DNA of 64,000 bases. It comes from Coraliomargaritaceae bacterium. Its GTDB lineage: Bacteria > Verrucomicrobiota > Verrucomicrobiia > Opitutales > Coraliomargaritaceae. The notes beneath the pieces are model-generated. The model was not told where the DNA came from. It saw nothing but the letters and a program-made list of their open reading frames with translations, and ran no database searches. The DNA lies in assembly GCA_965656495.1 (NCBI GenBank), contig CBFHKU010000004.1:75392-139391 (forward strand), read 5' to 3'. Position numbers and translations under genes: made by a program. The first letter of the stretch is position 1; each line of letters opens with the position of its first letter. This document shows positions 41,735-64,000 of the stretch, piece after piece.

Positions 41735-41835
41735 AGTGGCCAGGCACCCTACGGCACATGTGGATCAAACTACCGCTGCTCCCTTCCGGGCCTGACGGGG
41801 TTTATTTGTCCGGCATTGCATAGGACCCGGCCACT
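41735..41835 (-). ncRNA. ffs: Signal recognition particle (4.5S) RNA
   Basis: Minus strand carries the TCAGGCCCGGAAGGGAGCAGC helix-8 motif in a ~100-nt hairpin followed by a U run; directly upstream of dnaX. Confidence 0.95.
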
Positions 41836-50999: not shown

Positions 51000-51260
51000 A
51001 AGCTTGAGAACCTTGAGGGAGTTGGAAGTTTTTAGTTGAACCTTGGAAATCCAAATTCACCACAGAGCAACAGAGTACACAAAGGGTTTCATTAAAGCTT
51101 CAGTGTCCAGGCAACGCTCCGTGCTCTTCCTGCCTTCGTAGTGAGCGTTCTCTGATTAAGATTAGGAGTAAGACCTAGACTAATCCCAACGAACAACTAG
51201 CAACGTTCAACACCTTCCCTTCAACGTTCAATGTTCGACGTTCAACGTTCATAACCCTTC
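51000..51260. repeat. Cluster of short repeats (aacgttc heptamers, caacgaacaact, caccacagag..cagag)
   Basis: Same motifs recur at 61270-61430 and 63320-64000. Confidence 0.7.
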
Positions 51261-51376
51261 CCCCAGCATTCAGAAACTAATGGCACGCATTAATTTTACT
51301 TTTTATTTAATATACTCATTGATTTTAGGCTTAATGCGGTTTTTAATAATACCCTGTTTTTCATCTACACGCGACC

Positions 51377-54034
51377 ATGCCCCTCAGCGAAGCCAAAGCA
51401 CATCAAATTTCTTCAAGCCCCATTAAACTTGAGGATTGCTGGGCCAAGACTGATACAGAAACGGGAGAAATAAATTTAACCGTACTCGACCACAGTCTAA
51501 CAGTTGGGGTCGTTGCGGGTGCGCTCTATTGTGCCTCCTTGAATCAAGTTTGCCGACGACTGCCACTTGGTTTCCAGACCTTAATCGCTTCCCACGATAT
51601 TGGTAAACTCACCCCTGGCTTTCAACTCAAGGCCACGAAGTGGATTCACCATGAAAGTTTGTTGAATTTAGTATGTAACAGAAACCTATGTACTAAGCAT
51701 GCAATCATCAGCCAATGGCATCTTTCGCAAAATCCTAGTTTCAATACTAGCACCAAAGGATGGCTCCTTTCGACAGGCGGACACCATGGCAGTTATATAA
51801 GTTCAATCATCCCTCAGATGGCAAGATATGAAGGCGGTGATACAATCTTTAACGGTTTACGTGATCAACTGCTTGAAATCTTGATTGAGACCTTCGGGCC
51901 CTTACCTCACGAATCCGCCGAAGAACAACAGGCAAGAATTCACCTTTTAACAGGCCTCACAATCTTTGCAGATTGGATTGGCTCAAACACAAACTGGTTT
52001 CCACCAAACAAAAGACATAACCTCGAAACGCTCCGCAATACTGCCGAAGATTGCCTTGAGAAGCTCTTTTGGGAAGTTGAGCCTCAAAAGGACTTGAGTT
52101 TCGGGGCGCAGTTCAATCCCGCTAAGCCCAAAGCCTTCCAGCCGCGCAGCATTCAATCCGCACTGCTTGAAGCGGCACAACATCCCGGTCTTTATATCGT
52201 AGAAGCACCGATGGGCATGGGAAAAACGGAAGCAGCCCTCTCTGCAGCCTATCAACTATGGAATAAAAAAGCTGCTCGGGGTTTATACTTTGCCCTTCCC
52301 ACTCAACTGACCTCAGAAAAAATCAACGAGCGCATCTTCAAGTTCCTTGAGAACACCTTTGAATCAACCACCATCCAAACCCTAATCCATGGGAACGCTT
52401 GGCTGAATGAGGAGCAAAGCCGTCGTTTGGTTCACCCTAACACAAAAGAAGATGCTGAGGAAAAGAGCGATACGGATGAAGCGCTTCGTTGGTATAGTAC
52501 AACACGAAAACAACTGCTCGCTCCTTTTGGAGCTGGCACGATTGATCAAGCTCTACTCGCGATTCTCCCGGCTAAATTCGCCGCCCTCCGGTGCTTCGCC
52601 CTGGCGGGTAAAGTCGTGGTCATTGATGAAGTACATTCCTTTGACCCTTATATGTCTGCTTTGATTGATCGACTGGTGCACTACCTCATCGAAACCGGCA
52701 GCACCGTCATCGTTCTCTCCGCAACCCTCACGACACAAAGACGTCGCGAATTGGTTGAGGCCGCAGGTACCAATGAATCGAGTCCGCCCGTAGCATATCC
52801 ACTTATCACTAAAGTTGCCACTGGTGAAACGGGGGCGCAACACTTTGAAATTGCGCATGAATTGCCCGAAAAAACGGTGCACATCAAAAAGCATCGCCTT
52901 CCTGAGAATAACGATCGCTATTGGCAAGAAATCGCCAGCAAGGTCGAGGCCGGAGCCAATGTGGTCGTTATCCGTAACACCGTTGCCCTTGCACAGGAAA
53001 CCTATTGCAAAATCAAAAGCTACCTCCGCGACAGAATTCCATCTGAAAATATCGGTTTGATCCATTCCCGTTTCCCGCATTTGCGACGGCTGGAGAACGA
53101 AAAAAAGTGGACGGAACGATTGGGCAAAGACACCGCCGAGCGTCCTCAAGGATCGCTCCTTGTCTCAACCCAAATCCTTGAACAATCCGTTGATATCGAC
53201 GCCGACCTGCTCGTCACAGATCTCGCCCCCCTCGACCTTATCCTACAACGCATTGGTCGCCTGCATCGACATGAGATAAGCGATCGCCCGAAAGGATTTC
53301 GACAAGCTACCTGCGAAATTCTAATGCCCAACACGAATTGGAAAGGTTCTGCGAAGGAAACTAAAGCTGCCCTATTACCGCACGCTTTTGTTTATCGTGA
53401 AATAACCCTTTGGCGTGCAGCACAATTGCTACACGACATTGATTCAATTAAATTGCCTGGCGAAATTCGCCCCCTGCTTGAAAAGAATAGCGCCTTATTA
53501 CCCGATCCAGAGAAAGAACCGGGCATCTACGCTTTATGGGAAGCATTCAAGGATGAAGTAATCAAGAAAATCGATACCGTGAAGAATCGCGATGTTTTCA
53601 ACGCATTGGCGAATGACGATAAAGAAGGTATTGAGACACGCGACGGCATACAACCCACCGCCCAACTTATTCTCCTGAGAGAATTTCCAAAAGAAAATAA
53701 CAGCAGCAGCGAGTTGGATTTACTCGATGGCGAGTCCGTCCGCATAGATCATAACAATTTCTCATTTGAAGTAGCCAAGACGCTCCAGCAGCACGCCATC
53801 CGTATACCGCGCTACCTCGTCATAGAGCAACTGATCGAGAGTCCCCCTTGGTTAGTCCGATATTGCGGCGATGCAGTTTTGGCCCTCTACCAACCGGATG
53901 TTCCAACCCTGCAATTCCAAAGTGAGACAAGCTCCGGTTACCAACTCAATTTCCGCGAGGATCTCGGGCTGAGCTATCGAAAGGAAGAGATTTCTGCCGA
54001 ATTTATTTCACAAGAAGATGATTACTGGAATTGA
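51377..54034 (+). CDS. cas3: Cas3 HD nuclease-helicase
   Basis: WAKT, DHS, SHDIGK, GHHG, FADWIGS, APMGMGKTEAA, DEVH, LSATL, QRIGRLHRH. Confidence 0.98.
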   Translation: MPLSEAKAHQISSSPIKLEDCWAKTDTETGEINLTVLDHSLTVGVVAGALYCASLNQVCRRLPLGFQTLIASHDIGKLTPGFQLKATKWIHHESLLNLVCNRNLCTKHAIISQWHLSQNPSFNTSTKGWLLSTGGHHGSYISSIIPQMARYEGGDTIFNGLRDQLLEILIETFGPLPHESAEEQQARIHLLTGLTIFADWIGSNTNWFPPNKRHNLETLRNTAEDCLEKLFWEVEPQKDLSFGAQFNPAKPKAFQPRSIQSALLEAAQHPGLYIVEAPMGMGKTEAALSAAYQLWNKKAARGLYFALPTQLTSEKINERIFKFLENTFESTTIQTLIHGNAWLNEEQSRRLVHPNTKEDAEEKSDTDEALRWYSTTRKQLLAPFGAGTIDQALLAILPAKFAALRCFALAGKVVVIDEVHSFDPYMSALIDRLVHYLIETGSTVIVLSATLTTQRRRELVEAAGTNESSPPVAYPLITKVATGETGAQHFEIAHELPEKTVHIKKHRLPENNDRYWQEIASKVEAGANVVVIRNTVALAQETYCKIKSYLRDRIPSENIGLIHSRFPHLRRLENEKKWTERLGKDTAERPQGSLLVSTQILEQSVDIDADLLVTDLAPLDLILQRIGRLHRHEISDRPKGFRQATCEILMPNTNWKGSAKETKAALLPHAFVYREITLWRAAQLLHDIDSIKLPGEIRPLLEKNSALLPDPEKEPGIYALWEAFKDEVIKKIDTVKNRDVFNALANDDKEGIETRDGIQPTAQLILLREFPKENNSSSELDLLDGESVRIDHNNFSFEVAKTLQQHAIRIPRYLVIEQLIESPPWLVRYCGDAVLALYQPDVPTLQFQSETSSGYQLNFREDLGLSYRKEEISAEFISQEDDYWN

Positions 54035-54105
54035 TCCCCACGTATGTGGGGAAACCAAAAATTTTTCTACGAAAAACGGTTCATCCCAATATTGTATCGG
54101 GCGCT
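54028..54105 (-). CRISPR. Mini-CRISPR (pseudo-repeat, 20-nt spacer, pseudo-repeat), CreA/CreR-like
   Basis: Minus strand: agcg-cccgata-caa-tattggg-ATGAACCG | tttttcgtagaaaaattttt | ggtttccccacatacgtggggatcaattc (20/29 identical to the array repeat). Confidence 0.85.
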
Positions 54106-54142
54106 ACTTATCATTTCTATTTAATCTATCATTTCAATGCCT

Positions 54143-54162
54143 AATTTTTCTACAAAAGACTT
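54143..54162 (-). promoter_or_regulatory. Predicted Cascade target of the mini-CRISPR spacer, with AAG PAM
   Basis: Minus strand AAG-tcttttgtagaaaaatt matches spacer positions 1-17 at 15/17; mismatches at 2 (U:G) and 6. Confidence 0.8.
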
Positions 54163-54233
54163 AACTTTTTAGCTTTACAAACCCAATATATTAATTTTAA
54201 AAAATGCCATCAAACATTACATTTGATAGCATT

Positions 54234-54305
54234 GGACTCAGTGATGCTTGGGCATCTCTTGAAACTGTCTATTTTAAGGTTGAGGTTCGACTCCTCCTGA
54301 GTCCA
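54234..54305 (+). ncRNA. Non-canonical tRNA-like cloverleaf RNA (8/4 fold)
   Basis: Acceptor ggactcag/ctgagtcc; D arm gatgc-ttgg-gcatc; cttgaaa-ctGTCta-ttttaag; T arm gagg-TTCGACT-cctc. Confidence 0.75.
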
Positions 54306-54321
54306 ACAAATTTTTAGCCAA

Positions 54322-55794
54322 ATGAATAATTTTAACATTTTAGAATATAAATTCATCCCAGTCCGTTATATTAAACATAGCGGGAATAAGAATCCATTTT
54401 TAGTCTCGCTGACGGATGCATTTATTCGATGCGAAGAAATCGCGGATCTAGACTGCGCCCCACATGAACGTATCGCCCTGCTACGTTTATTGATCTGTAT
54501 CGCACATGCCGCCCTAGGAGCGCCCAAATCACCCGATCACTGGGACGACTTTGGCGAAGATCTGGAGGAAAAAATCACCGCCTATTTGAAGCGACCTGAG
54601 ATAAGCCAGCATTTTAATCTACTTGGTGACGGCGCACGCTTCCTGCAGGAAGATGTCCCCTCTAATGGAGAGGTAACACCGCTTTCAAAACTAACCCCAT
54701 ATCTCGCCACCGGTAATAATCCAACATCCAGCGATCACTTTGGGATAAGCCCCCATCGGAAATTTACGCCGGCTCAGGCAATCCTTGCTCTCTTAGCCTT
54801 CCAAAACTTTTACCCTCTTTATGGAGCGGGCTACAAAGGGCGCGGTCCATGCGCTGACGGCAATGCGATTCACACCTTTCTTCATGGCAAAAACCTTAAA
54901 GCAATTCTCCTCCTTAATTTATTGGACCATCAGACGATTCAGGAATTCGCCCCGAATGGCATCGGTAAACCCATCTGGGAGTGCAAGTCAGATGAAGAAT
55001 TGGAAGCATCGACACGCACCTACCTTGGTCGACTGGTTCCAAGGCACCGCTCGCTCAAACTCACCGACAATCTTTCGGGCTTCTATCACCGCAAGAAAAG
55101 CCTCCTTTATTCCTCATGGGAGCCTTACCGCGAACCCACCTCAACTGGCATTCTAAATCATAAAAAAGAACGACGGTTGCTTTCCGCACGCTTGGATCGG
55201 GGCATCTGGCGCGACCTGCACTGCATCATTGCTCTCAAAAAAAATATCCAAACTGAAGGCGTGGAAGTTGCACCTATCCTTCGCAGTCACATGCTAGCCT
55301 TTGATGCCGGCGAGTGTAAGCTTTGGACCGGTGCGCTGATTACCGATTTCAAAGCAAAAATTCTCGATACGGTCGAATCTACTTTCACGATCAACCATCA
55401 AATGTTCAGCGTACATGGTTATATGACCTACCTGAGCGGTCTGGATCTTGCCGAAATAATTTCCACCAAACTCTATGGAGCTATAAGGGTATATTGGTCT
55501 GCCCTTAAACATGAAACCCCACCAACAAAAGAAGGACAGAAGCATTACTGGAACTGCCTCGATCAAGACCATCGCATTCTGATTCAACTCGCGGGCAATC
55601 CCGAATCGCCTCCGGGAAAAGCTGATTTTGGTCAAGCTAGTGCGGAAGATGAATGGACTAAACTTGTTCGCGGTGCCGCAAAGAGGGCCTACGAGTCCGT
55701 CTGTCCCCGCACCACACCGCGTCAGTTAAAGGCTTATGCTGCGGGACTTAGCACACTCAATCGCGCTCTCTTTCAAAAAAAGGAAGCGAAATAA
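54322..55794 (+). CDS. cas8e: Type I-E Cascade large subunit Cas8e (Cse1/CasA)
   Basis: FNIL..KFIPV, ALLRLLICI, FNLLGDGARFLQ, IWRDL; first gene of the Cascade operon. Confidence 0.9.
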   Translation: MNNFNILEYKFIPVRYIKHSGNKNPFLVSLTDAFIRCEEIADLDCAPHERIALLRLLICIAHAALGAPKSPDHWDDFGEDLEEKITAYLKRPEISQHFNLLGDGARFLQEDVPSNGEVTPLSKLTPYLATGNNPTSSDHFGISPHRKFTPAQAILALLAFQNFYPLYGAGYKGRGPCADGNAIHTFLHGKNLKAILLLNLLDHQTIQEFAPNGIGKPIWECKSDEELEASTRTYLGRLVPRHRSLKLTDNLSGFYHRKKSLLYSSWEPYREPTSTGILNHKKERRLLSARLDRGIWRDLHCIIALKKNIQTEGVEVAPILRSHMLAFDAGECKLWTGALITDFKAKILDTVESTFTINHQMFSVHGYMTYLSGLDLAEIISTKLYGAIRVYWSALKHETPPTKEGQKHYWNCLDQDHRILIQLAGNPESPPGKADFGQASAEDEWTKLVRGAAKRAYESVCPRTTPRQLKAYAAGLSTLNRALFQKKEAK

Positions 55795-60062: not shown

Positions 60063-61067
60063 GACTTCCCCACGCGCGTGGGGATGAACCGTTGTTTACG
60101 TGGGTTACTCCGGCAGTCAGCTTGACTTCCCCACGCGCGTGGGGATGAACCGACATCCGTCCCTTGACCGATAACGTCTCGGTTGACTTCCCCACGCGCG
60201 TGGGGATGAACCGAACAAAAACGCCTCGCGATCGCAAATTCCGCCGACTTCCCCACGCGCGTGGGGATGAACCGTGTAGGCACCCTGAATGTATTCGCGC
60301 ACTTCGGACTTCCCCACGCGCGTGGGGATGAACCGATGCCCTCCATTGTGAGTTGCCGGGGATCCGTGACTTCCCCACGCGCGTGGGGATGAACCGCCGT
60401 CGTTGACGGAGAACTTGGCGCGGAAGTCGACTTCCCCACGCGCGTGGGGATGAACCGCCCGCGATTATCGTCTGCACGGCAAATGCCTGGACTTCCCCAC
60501 GCGCGTGGGGATGAACCGCCGTGATCTACACCTTCAAAGGCCCGGACCCGGACTTCCCCACGCGCGTGGGGATGAACCGACATCGCACGCATCTTCGGAG
60601 TCCCCGGCCACGACTTCCCCACGCGCGTGGGGATGAACCGGTGGTTTTTAGTTTTTGGGCGTGTGGGTTTTGGACTTCCCCACGCGCGTGGGGATGAACC
60701 GGCCAGCCAAAGAATTAACGAGAGGAGATCGAGGACTTCCCCACGCGCGTGGGGATGAACCGAGTAGCTAGCTCGCCCAACCAACGATCGCTGAGACTTC
60801 CCCACGCGCGTGGGGATGAACCGTCCGGTTCCACTCGGCGAGGATTTTACGGGCCGACTTCCCCACGCGCGTGGGGATGAACCGGCATCCGTCGAGTATA
60901 TCACGGACCACGGCACGACTTCCCCACGCGCGTGGGGATGAACCGACGAATAACCCGCCGCTTGACACCTCCCCCCTGACTTCCCCACGCGCGTGGGGAT
61001 GAACCGGCTTGTGGAGTCGCCCAGTTTTTCTTTACCTGGACTTCCCCACGCGCGTGGGGATGAACCG
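60063..61067 (+). CRISPR. Type I-E array: 17 repeats (GACTTCCCCACGCGCGTGGGGATGAACCG) and 16 spacers of 32 nt
   Basis: Exact 61-bp period from 60063 to 61039. Confidence 0.99.
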
Positions 61068-61857
61068 ACCGGAAGCATTATTATTTGCACGAGCTGTTTG
61101 TCAGGGAGACTCAGGTCGGCGAGACAGGACCAGAACCAGAATTTCCAAGTAAGGGAAGTCCTGCCAAGCCAACCCGAGTCATATATAATGTGCCAAAAGA
61201 GTTTGAGGCGGTCAAACTTAAGAAGCCTTCACAAGACTTCCCCTCACGCGTGAGGATCTTGTTCGTTCCAGGCAGCTTACAACGTTCAACGAACAACTGC
61301 TAACCCCTCCCCATTCATGCCCATTCGTGTCCATTCGTGGTTCCAATCAACAACGTTCAACGAACAACCCCTTTAGTGCCTTCGTTCGAGGTACCCTCCG
61401 TGTCCTTCGTTTCTCCGTGGTAAATCCCCTTTCCGAATCGCGTCTTTCGTGGGTTCGCGGCGTAGAATTCCCTCGCTCGCCGATAGCCTGCCTTCACTTT
61501 TTTAAGGAGGGTATCGTAATCGTAAACCTCCGGGACCGGCTTAGCTGGCGAGGCCTTGCTTTCGGGTTTGTTAGCTTGTGTGGGTTTGTCTGTCATGAAT
61601 CTTGCAGTATTCTGTCTTACTAATGCCAGTTCCACTTCCCCACCCGCGTGGGGATGAACCGGCCGGAAGCATTTTTATTTGCACGAGCTGTTTGCCAGGG
61701 AGACTCAGGTCGGCGAGACAGGACCAGAACCAGAATATCCAAGTAAGGGAAGTCCTGCCAAGCCAACCCGAGTCATGTATAATGTGTCAAAAGAGTTTGA
61801 GGCGGTCAAACTTAAGAAGCCTCCACAAGACTTCCCCACCTGCGTGGGGATTAACCG
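61039..61857 (+). CRISPR. Trailer with two repeat/167-bp/repeat units (repeats at 61039, 61235, 61633, 61829)
   Basis: 61068-61234 and 61662-61828 differ at about 7 positions; each is bounded by intact or degenerate repeats. Confidence 0.9.
61357..61596 (-). CDS. Small hypothetical protein between the duplicated CRISPR units
   Basis: MTDKP...YDYDTLLKKVKAGYRRAREFY; 3' part runs through short repeats. Confidence 0.35.
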   Translation of the reverse strand: MTDKPTQANKPESKASPAKPVPEVYDYDTLLKKVKAGYRRAREFYAANPRKTRFGKGIYHGETKDTEGTSNEGTKGVVR

Positions 61858-61996
61858 GGCCGACCCAAGCCAAGACCAGCGCCTGGTACGGAATTCCGCT
61901 GCCCTGTTGCCTGTTGCCTGCTTCTGGGCGAACCTGCGTCTTAATGATTTATTTGTAGGTCTTTGTGGGTTTTACGTTAAAATCCATTGATAACCC

Positions 61997-62587
61997 TCAG
62001 TACAGAATATCCGGACCGTTAGGATAAATATCAAAATATTCAATTGCTTCCTCACGTGTAGTTAAATCAGAGCAGTCGCGCTGTAATATTGAGAGCCGGC
62101 CTTCATAACCAAGAAGACGCGCGGTGGTTTTAAGGTTTTTCCAAAGGGCCAAATGATGAATCGCAAAACTGTCGCGGAGGGCGTTGACTGGCACGGTTCG
62201 TTCCATTTGTTCCTCAATAAAATGATCTAATTCTCGTAGTGAGCGTGGAAAAATCGGCCCTTGCTCTTTGCGTTCCCACTCGAGCCATCGCCAGAGATTT
62301 TTTGGGGCGCAGTCGATAAGAAACGCGGGGTTTCCATGGTTCAGTGCTTTCGAGATGAAAATAGTACGTGCGGAAAAATCGATATTCTCCCACGACAAGG
62401 GAGTACAATGTTCGCAAACCAATGCCTCTTTTTTAACTCCTCCAAAAAGCATAAGCGCGAGCGCTGCTCCGTAGTCGGTTGAACGCGCTGCTTCCATAAT
62501 GTAATACGCTTCTAACGGGGTAAAAAAAGGAACTTTCAGATTACGGAATGTATGAGCGCCGCTGTCTTTAGGTGGTATTCGTGCCAT
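61997..62587 (-). CDS. Tyrosine recombinase catalytic-domain homolog with substituted active-site residues
   Basis: LMLFGGVKKEAL, LSWENIDF, NALRDSFAIHHL, TARLLGY. Confidence 0.75.
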   Translation of the reverse strand: MARIPPKDSGAHTFRNLKVPFFTPLEAYYIMEAARSTDYGAALALMLFGGVKKEALVCEHCTPLSWENIDFSARTIFISKALNHGNPAFLIDCAPKNLWRWLEWERKEQGPIFPRSLRELDHFIEEQMERTVPVNALRDSFAIHHLALWKNLKTTARLLGYEGRLSILQRDCSDLTTREEAIEYFDIYPNGPDILY

Positions 62588-63137: not shown

Positions 63138-63485
63138 TCCTGTCCATTCGTGGTACAGCAAGGGCGTCTAGCAGGGGGGTAAAAGGAGGCGACCCCTAAA
63201 GGAAGGCTGAACAAACACCTGAATCAAGATAGGGGTCGGACCAACCAAAAGGGGTCAATCCCCAGCGTGTAAAAACAAAAACCGATGTCAACTCCGGTAT
63301 TTCGCTTCCGACATCGTACACCGAACGTTCAACATCGAACTCACCACCGAGGCTGTTCTGAGCATCGAACATCCAACATTGAACATCGAACGCTGAACTT
63401 CAACTTTCATACATTCCAACTTTCCCACCTTCCCACCATTAAATCCCACCTTCGATGTTGGAAGTTCGATGTTCGGCGTTCCTCC

Positions 63486-64000
63486 ACCTTCCCACTTTCC
63501 CACCTTCATACTTTCCCACCTCACCTCCTCACCTCCCCATTCGTGGTTCCTGCAACTGATTCACCGCCGAGGCACCGAGTACGCGGAGTGGTTATGGGGT
63601 TGGAAGCTGTTAGTTGAACGTTGGAAGCGTAGAAGCGACACTCTTGTCGCTTTCCTAGCACAAGCCGTACAAGCAAAGCGGCAGGATTGCCGCTTCCACG
63701 TGATAGCGCGCCTTCGTGGTGAACAACTTCCCTGATGAAGATTAAGACTTAGGGTAATCCCAACCTTCCCACTTTCCCACCTTCATACTTTCCCACCTCA
63801 CCTCCTCACCTCCCCATTCGTGGTTCCAAACAATTGATTCACCGCCGAGGCACCGAGTACGCGGAGTGGTTATGGGGTTGGAAGTTGTTAGTTGAACGTT
63901 CGAAGCGTAGAAGCGACACTCCTGTCGCTTTCCTAGCACAAGCCGTACAAGCAAAGCGGCAGGATTGCCGCTTCCACGTGATAGCGCGCCTTCGTGGTGA
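63486..64000. repeat. ~237-bp direct repeat (63486-63722 and 63763-64000) with REP-like hairpins
   Basis: Near-identical copies holding agcgaca-ctc[tc]-tgtcgct and aagcggca-ggat-tgccgctt; preceded by aacatcg heptamers (63320-63480). Confidence 0.92.

Follow-up and report, generated by a model that had tools for sequence, protein, structure and literature searches.

The closest described relatives of the locus analysed here are the CreTA addiction modules and the CreR autorepression circuits of CRISPR loci. The CreTA variants comprise the RNA CreT of Haloarcula and Halobacterium, a proline-codon RNA CreT of Pseudomonas (10.64898/2026.06.02.729485), a short-peptide CreT of the I-E system of Citrobacter (PMC12055562), and CrePA, the protein toxins CreP being among the known CRISPR-regulated cargo. 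The CreT RNAs that carry a mini-ORF sequester rare tRNAs (PMC8501985). Published accounts describe the CreA/CreR architecture of I-E systems (10.1101/2023.03.03.530964, 10.1101/2023.03.10.532045, PMC8501985), report that CreA represses both creT and cas (10.1101/2023.03.10.532045), and indicate that mini-arrays aimed at the cas8 promoter are common in I-E loci and often toxin-less (10.1101/2023.03.03.530964, 10.1101/2023.03.10.532045). Among RNAs, tRNAs of the 8/4 type can accept an amino acid and be carried by EF-Tu; the genes of some are neighbours of toxin-antitoxin genes, two variants proved lethal to E. coli, and the main text of that report never uses the word CRISPR (PMC5389517). A full-text literature search, with most subscription journals outside its reach, returned no tRNA-like RNA under Cascade repression. 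Here, a conserved tRNA-like RNA appears to be wired into a CreA/CreR circuit, and a tRNA-mimic toxin is the most likely role of this cargo. The mini-array half of the arrangement is known already, while the tRNA-shaped cargo seems to be new.

The window, i.e. the whole stretch of 64,000 nucleotides that was analysed, carries a complete type I-E locus according to Pfam: cas3, a 287-bp gap, the genes cas8e, cas11, cas6e, cas7, cas5, cas1 and cas2, and the array (Table 1). On the minus strand of the gap, two degenerate repeats enclose one 20-nt spacer. This mini-CRISPR runs opposite to the main array, and its pseudo-repeat 2 overlaps the final codons of cas3. On the plus strand, an A tract and a 12-bp inverted repeat separate the predicted -35 box from the cloverleaf, and 16 nt separate the discriminator from the start codon of cas8e. 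The original prediction had correctly set the cloverleaf directly before cas8e; it had overlooked the mini-CRISPR aimed at the promoter and the alanine set present in homologues.

Table 1. Features of the type I-E locus and of its cas3-cas8e gap (positions in the window)
Feature	Position	Strand	Remarks
cas3, type I-E HD nuclease/helicase	51377..54034	+	Pfam Cas3_HD, Cas3-like_C_2; ORF
Pseudo-repeat 2	54028..54056	-	20/29 identical to array repeat; 7-bp Cas6e hairpin (3' handle) kept
Spacer (guide), 20 nt	54057..54076	-	14/15 non-6n positions among 1-18 match target
Pseudo-repeat 1	54077..54107	-	8-nt 5' handle same as that of array repeat; hairpin sequence-diverged
Candidate sigma-70 promoter of mini-array	54110..54137	-	Consensus match only
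Guide target	54143..54162	-	Protospacer 54159-54143, AAG PAM 54162-54160
Predicted -35 box, promoter of tRNA-like RNA and cas8e operon	54174..54179	+	Sequence
A tract and 12-bp inverted repeat directly 5' of cloverleaf	54199..54233	.	Structure conserved, sequence not
8/4 tRNA-like RNA	54234..54305	+	G1-C, G2-C, A3-U, C4-G, discriminator A, CCA not encoded
Anticodon-like loop	54265..54272	+	7 nt (54265-54271) in best fold of window; 8 nt (CU-GUCU-AU) in shared register
cas8e (cse1)	54322..55794	+	Pfam; leads cas8e-cas11-cas6e-cas7-cas5-cas1-cas2
Main CRISPR array	60063..61068	+	17 exact copies of 29-nt repeat in window

Several other elements surround the locus. Intergenic repeats, made of short alternating units and a duplicated 190-bp block, flank it at 51000-51270, 61280-61420 and 63285-64000, and a unit of about 200 bp is duplicated after the main array (61068-61250 and 61640-61860), each copy being bounded by degenerate CRISPR repeats. 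A 196-aa ORF (61997-62587, minus strand) has no Pfam match; its sequence looks by eye like a tyrosine recombinase's catalytic end. It may lie at the border of an island that carries the cas locus; no Cas8e match was obtained in 6 other genomes of the host genus. A bacterial small SRP RNA lies further away at 41735-41832 on the minus strand (69.5 bits).

The cloverleaf of the window is real and conserved. An acceptor stem of 8 bp (54234-54241/54297-54304) is followed by a 1-nt linker and a 5-bp D stem with a 4-nt loop, then by the anticodon-like arm (54258-54278), a 3-nt connector, and a T arm composed of a 4-bp stem and a canonical T loop; the discriminator is the A at 54305. Folded alone, the segment 54234-54308 adopts the cloverleaf as its minimum-free-energy structure (-26.4 kcal/mol, z -3.24) with an additional U.G pair closing the anticodon arm at its base, and only one of 200 shuffled versions was equally stable. 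Position and arms had been proposed from the letters alone, and both are borne out by the sequence and by this fold. The RNA also gave no confident hit to a known family, a hit that would have refuted the original prediction: ARAGORN called no tRNA anywhere in the 64-kb window, and Rfam gave no match at the gathering score at the cloverleaf, the sole sub-threshold hit being RF00005 with 24.3 bits against a cut-off of 29. ARAGORN called none of the four 8/4 members described below, and at a relaxed threshold its output across the host genome was noise. The RNA is single-copy in the 2.06-Mb host genome.

The same layout was found at other loci. Cas8e matches were obtained in 6 of 100 relatives, and only L002, from a genome (G015) of the same family as the window host and of a different genus, repeats the layout; L022 is the same locus. 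A metagenome scan, whose query consisted only of the cas3 end and pseudo-repeat 2 and was blind to the cloverleaf, yielded four loci: L025, L027 and L028 have hairpin and tRNA-like RNA before cas8e, and L026, with a gap identical to that of L009, has guide and target only. The layout is present in five loci in total, with four 8/4 RNAs (window, L002, L025 and L027) and one 7/5 RNA (L028), so the family evidence amounts to five members, two of them nearly identical. In all five the 3' end of the RNA lies 12-18 nt before the cas8e start, and every one has a guide-target pair (5/5). Five of the six two-repeat mini-array loci carry a tRNA-like RNA in this slot, the sixth being L009/L026, an autorepression layout devoid of the cloverleaf within the same clade.

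Searches for further members were carried out at several scales. A covariance model was built from three members. L027, which had been held out, reached 57.8 bits with it, L028 reached 30, and no ordinary tRNA exceeded 33; the model gave no strong match beyond these loci in overlapping samples of the family (100), order (150) and class (150), where the best candidates per genome were scored. A match of 31.5 bits in G002 proved to be an ordinary tRNA-Arg-type gene. In the phylum sample, 42 genomes have Cse1 loci, and the RNA precedes cas8e in two (G000, the window host, and G015); most of the 42 have no cas3-cas8e gap and one (L043) was without upstream DNA, as were L006, L012 and L014 from other searches. 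A metagenome scan with Cas8e gave 77 candidates, none of which was confirmed, and BLAST of the gap against plasmids gave no match. Cloverleaf patterns matched viral contigs in two scans (2 + 2 matches, all ordinary tRNAs; none in later scans) and genome contigs four times, namely L022, which is real, two tRNA-Leu and one chance match. Because exact patterns of this kind have low recall, the family may be larger.

In a tree of Cas3 and Cas8e comprising 18 of 21 loci (L013, L015 and L031 were left out owing to short matches), the four 8/4 loci share a clade of eight (100/98) with four loci that have no gap, among which they are interspersed; L028 belongs to a separate Cas clade. This interspersion indicates that the cassette was repeatedly gained or lost. 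That it is readily lost or gained is also seen from close relatives (L004, L005, L016 and L029), in which the entire gap is missing. L009 and L010 have near-identical Cas proteins (branch lengths about 0.02), the former with and the latter without the mini-array. L010 and L016 retain just the first bases of pseudo-repeat 2 past the cas3 stop, which suggests deletion of the cassette. In another genome (G491, locus L044), the cas3-cas8e gap of 654 bp (about 850-1500 in cas orientation) holds a complete CRISPR array in inverted orientation, with about eight repeats that degenerate toward cas8e, and no tRNA-like RNA; a terminal spacer partially matches an AAG-flanked site beside the cas8e promoter. 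This locus looks like an intermediate in the birth of a creR from a full array.

Judged by its sequence, the gap has the CreA/CreR architecture described for I-E systems. Between cas genes lies the two-repeat mini-array, in which the 8-nt 5' handle and 3' hairpin are preserved, and the guide has a seed-side, PAM-flanked partial match at a promoter of its own locus. The guide and target of the window are mismatched at position 2 (an rU:dG wobble) and at position 6, which is unpaired in Cascade; across the whole genome, the runner-up AAG- or ATG-flanked site for this spacer scores 12. Six mini-arrays carry six unrelated spacers, each of which fits the promoter site of its own locus at 13-14 of 15 non-6n positions. 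Spacer and target change together across the six loci; position 6 is mismatched in all six pairs, and the PAM is AAG in five and AAA in one. The gap of L028 has a tandem duplication of target and -35 box, giving two AAG-flanked targets (14/15 and 13/15) for one guide. Every homologous locus has a TTGACA-like box at a distance of 5 or 11 bp to the PAM, the predicted -35 box of the window being 11 bp beyond it, and host promoters have a strong -35 and a weak -10. The transcription start for the tRNA-like RNA and cas8e is a predicted site. The promoter of the mini-array comes from a sigma-70 consensus scan of the region that found 4 sites versus 4.8 expected by chance.

The hairpin upstream of the cloverleaf is present in all five loci, always preceded by the A tract, and only 11-22 of 32 bases are identical. 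In the window it is more stable on the minus strand (-13.6 kcal/mol versus -7.6 on the plus strand); over the five loci, the minus strand is favoured in three, the plus strand in one, and the two are about equal in one. The hairpin may be an intrinsic terminator of the minus strand, or a leader hairpin or cap at the 5' end of the plus-strand RNA. In the former case it may end antisense transcription, possibly of an antisense RNA spanning the cloverleaf. No conserved mini-ORF was found: ATG-started frames vary in position, length and content over the five loci, L025 has none before cas8e, and a 37-codon frame spanning hairpin and cloverleaf in the window is not conserved. A classical RNA CreT (start codon, rare-codon mini-ORF and stem-loop) was rejected since the frames differ among the five loci. 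The look of the host tmRNA had suggested an origin from a truncated tmRNA; this was also rejected, given the covariation of the D stem as a paired helix and the absence of tmRNA hits in Rfam.

The fold was then compared among the four 8/4 members. In the acceptor, D and T stems every cell is paired in all four sequences, and two-sided changes affect 3 of 8 acceptor pairs, 3 of 5 D pairs and 2 of 4 T pairs (8/17 in total). None of 500 shuffles reached the observed paired fraction or covariation score, and slid controls gave about 50%. With only four rows, of which two are 96% identical, and an alignment fitted to the structure, the evidence is strong but small; the more distant members are 54-72% identical. 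The compensatory changes that the original prediction looked for in homologs therefore exist in all three stems, and the 8/4 division itself, an 8-bp acceptor with a 4-bp T stem, stands. Pair 8 is G-C in all four, with no covariation of its own, and position 48 is U; together these rule out a 7/5 fold for the 8/4 members. L002 and L025 agree at 69 of the 72 RNA bases, those of the loop among them; identity is lower in the hairpin (22/32), over the remainder of the gap (101/168) and in cas8e (205/300). When folded without constraints, neither of these two RNAs has a cloverleaf as its best structure. The RNA of L028 has a different scaffold, with a 7/5 fold, a normal D arm, an encoded CCA, an irregular loop and G3.U70; ARAGORN calls it tRNA-Stop(TTA) and Rfam scores it as tRNA with 58 bits.

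The anticodon arm is the least regular part of the RNA. The 7-bp stem and 7-nt loop assigned to it earlier agree with the best fold of the window, whose ensemble favours the 7-nt loop (closing-pair probability 0.77), but this register is not the conserved one: over the four 8/4 members its closing pair is standard in one and 5 of 15 distal cells are paired. With an 8-nt loop, a register picked after inspection of the alignment, the closing pair is standard in four of four, with one two-sided change from A-U to C-G, and 8 of 11 distal cells are paired. The loops then read CU-GUCU-AU (window), UU-CCUA-AA (twice) and UU-UGCA-AC, each with U33 and A37, and the odd U37 of the window disappears. The anticodon loops thus seem to fit 8 nt better than 7 nt, although the distal stem is marginal in L002, L025 and L027 and the loops vary among members. 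The four-base readings would be UAGG (L002 and L025), UGCA (L027) and AGAC (window), and the loop of L028 gives UUA or UUAG; AGA is the rarest sense codon of the host (2.2 per 1000). A working tRNA-Asp, which had been doubted from the outset, was rejected. The discriminator of tRNA-Asp is G73, here it is A73; GUC occurs in the window and in no homologue, and the host has an ordinary tRNA-Asp(GUC) with CCA. In one report, the growth of E. coli was halted by an expressed tRNA-Ala with a four-base anticodon, AlaRS ignoring the loop (PMC9094753).

The acceptor stem of most members suggests alanine. G1-C, G2-C, C4-G and A73 are invariant across the five RNAs, and pair 3 is G3.U70 in four and A3-U70 in the window, so that four members have the set G3.U70, G2-C71 and A73. 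G3.U70 is the major alanine determinant and bacterial alanine identity is listed with G4-C69 (PMC9976931), unlike the C4-G69 found in all five RNAs; an archaeal AlaRS binds an A3-U70 tRNA, the end of which folds into a non-reactive route (PMC11392972, citing Naganuma 2014). The window copy lacks G3.U70 and keeps all base pairs, which indicates selection there on shape and not on alanylation. None of the 33 CCA-ending tRNA genes of the host has G3.U70, its tRNA-Ala being missing from the assembly. The 35 ARAGORN calls of the host contain neither tRNA-Ala nor tRNA-Ile(GAU), and both probably sit in an unassembled rRNA operon. CCA is not encoded in four of the five RNAs, although 33 of the 35 host tRNA genes encode it; a single gene for a CCA/poly(A) nucleotidyltransferase is present in the host. 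BLAST of L002 against phages gave one match, a tRNA-Ala that resembles L002 and L025 in acceptor and T arm (27/29 bases, E 4e-3). It was also the best of 37 tRNAs in global alignments for L002, L025 and L027, a ranking biased by its having been chosen by BLAST with L002. A U.C mismatch at the base of its T stem suggests a route from a 7/5 to an 8/4 fold.

Anatomy, guide-target covariation, fold conservation and co-occurrence are direct observations in these loci. The explanation that we favour, and to which we give about an even chance, is an addiction module of the CreTA type in which a tRNA mimic serves as the toxin, corrupting or blocking translation. By analogy with known systems, Cas6e would cut the transcript of the minus-strand mini-array into a short guide; guide-loaded Cascade would bind the AAG-flanked site upstream of the -35 box, where a partial duplex of 17 nt would block RNA polymerase without licensing Cas3. 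One transcript, consisting of the tRNA-like RNA and then cas8e-cas5, would be repressed, and since it includes the cas genes, Cascade would limit its own synthesis. For the following steps, from release and processing to AlaRS engagement and any toxicity, we infer a course as follows. Loss or titration of Cascade, or its inhibition by an anti-CRISPR, would allow the RNA to be made, cut out by tRNA-processing nucleases and given its CCA, and the freed RNA would engage AlaRS via its acceptor. Members with G3.U70 would be alanylated and would bring alanine to the ribosome with a wrong, enlarged anticodon loop, the outcome being mis-decoding, stop read-through, frameshift or stalling. The window copy with A3-U70 would more likely be an uncharged decoy of AlaRS or of the ribosome, or an attenuated allele. 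A more specific version, in which the RNAs are code-breaking tRNAs of alanine identity with 8-nt loops, silenced as toxins by Cascade in I-E loci of Verrucomicrobiota and causing +1 frameshifts or stop read-through upon release, is speculative and rather unlikely.

Several observations argue for a toxin. The slot appears identical to that of the I-E CreT of Citrobacter, the RNA never occurs without its guide-target pair, and the L009/L026 layout suggests that Cascade autorepression works without the RNA. Two scaffolds seem to converge on alanine identity, and the L002/L025 RNAs hold their sequence next to flanks that are 60-69% identical. On the opposite side, A3-U70 in the window would abolish or divert charging, and C4-G69 in all members and the CCA missing from four of five count against a toxin; the variable loops, the distal stems predicted to be barely stable and the best folds of L002 and L025 also tell against it. 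The co-occurrence of RNA and guide may reflect deletion as one block.

The strongest rival, possible yet clearly more tentative, is that the guide only tunes Cascade by CreR autorepression and that the RNA acts in cis: a captured tRNA fold would be cut by RNase P and a 3' nuclease, and the cuts would set where the cas8e mRNA starts, or make its 5' end more or less stable, which was the second idea of the original prediction. The fixed distance to cas8e would suit such a role, as would the lack of CCA. RNase P and other processing enzymes read the acceptor and T arm, here the best conserved parts, the anticodon arm being the worst; RNase P RNA is present in the host. The fold is kept in the window copy, which lacks G3.U70, and I-E mini-arrays at the cas8 promoter are often toxin-less in the accounts mentioned at the start. 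However, a processing signal needs no aminoacylation determinant, so that G3.U70 in four of five members, an independent scaffold included, speaks for a toxin; the identity of L002 and L025 at unpaired positions likewise exceeds the needs of processing, and loci with CreR only would express cas8e without any cloverleaf.

A less probable rival, which we regard as doubtful, is a non-toxic RNA acting in trans, co-induced with Cascade during infection; it could, for instance, be a spare tRNA or a decoy, interfering with phage translation or soaking up a protein that targets tRNAs. The de-repression logic shared with the cas operon and the likeness of the L002/L025 acceptor and T arm to the phage tRNA-Ala agree with it, but no partner protein or phage link was found, the scans of viral contigs giving ordinary tRNAs or nothing. 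That the RNA is a decaying relic, a tRNA-Ala gene landed in the gap or the remnant of an integration site, is very improbable: missing CCA, irregular anticodon arm, sub-threshold Rfam score and the loss of G3.U70 in the window would fit, but the covariation (fully paired acceptor, D and T stems despite the divergence of distant members) appears largely to refute decay, and the RNA sits inside an operon and not at an island edge, with two different scaffolds filling the same slot.

If the addiction reading is true, it inverts the known chemistry, since the RNA CreTs described so far deprive the cell of a tRNA, and here a rogue tRNA would be released. It would add a new class of RNA toxin to CRISPR addiction and to anti-anti-CRISPR defence, a poison for cells that lose, or are robbed of, their CRISPR defence, and many 'toxin-less' CreR loci may then hide structured RNA cargo missed by tRNA finders. 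Under the code-breaking version, if correct, quadruplet or suppressor tRNAs would have been selected in nature to serve as a toxin. If instead the RNA acts in cis, it would be the first Cascade mRNA, within the literature searched, to have its 5' end set by tRNA punctuation. The RNA architecture is useful for asking what EF-Tu, AlaRS and the ribosome accept.

The locus shares with CreTA two degenerate repeats and a short spacer between cas genes, a PAM-flanked partial target at a promoter, and a small gene behind this promoter. The nearest counterpart is the I-E CreT of Citrobacter rodentium, which occupies the same cas3/casA slot with creA on the opposite strand and a target at the UP element (PMC12055562). 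The described toxins are tRNA-sequestering mini-ORF mRNAs, peptides or proteins, whereas here we propose that a tRNA-shaped RNA with no conserved ORF is toxic. CreR autorepression in Salmonella and E. coli I-E systems has in common with the window the mini-array in the cas3-cas8e gap, the AAG PAM, the mismatch at position 6 and the target beside the cas8e promoter; unlike in the window, nothing lies between promoter and cas8e in CreR loci, L009/L026 being such a locus in this clade.

Among tRNAs, a kinship with described 8/4 species, evoked by the original prediction, finds no support. The 12-bp branch split 8/4 and diverse anticodons are shared by the present RNAs with the allo-tRNAs, 8/4 tRNA-Ser and tRNA-His of Mukai et al. 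(PMC5389517); allo-tRNAs, however, have a long variable arm and G73 or U73 (serine identity), in contrast to the 3-nt connector, A73 and mostly G3.U70 found here. Allo-tRNA and tRNA-Ser were rejected on these grounds, and 8/4 tRNA-His (GUG anticodon, A73, no G-1) was rejected as GUG occurs in no member's loop. tRNA-Sec is excluded by the lack of UCA and of a long arm, L002 scoring 30.2 against 47 bits with RF01852; a SelA over the cut-off is present in G015 and absent from G000. tRNA-Pyl and mammalian mitochondrial tRNA-Ser(UCN) share the 1-nt linker, small D loop, 3-nt variable arm and long anticodon stem, the last being broken by bulges in some tRNA-Pyl (PMC7609411). Both have a 7/5 fold, and tRNA-Pyl has G73 and needs PylRS; with A73, an 8/4 fold and a PylS match over the cut-off in neither of two genomes (G000, G015), this identity was rejected as well. 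The tRNA-Ala(UGC) of a Pantoea phage (MK770119.1) shares G1-C, G2-C, G3.U, C4-G, A73 and a near-identical T arm with L002 and L025, and differs from the 8/4 RNAs by a standard 7/5 fold, a normal D arm, a 7-nt loop and an encoded CCA. The RNA represents a previously unlisted tRNA architecture, an 8/4 fold combining junctions like those of tRNA-Pyl with, in most members, a putative alanine identity.
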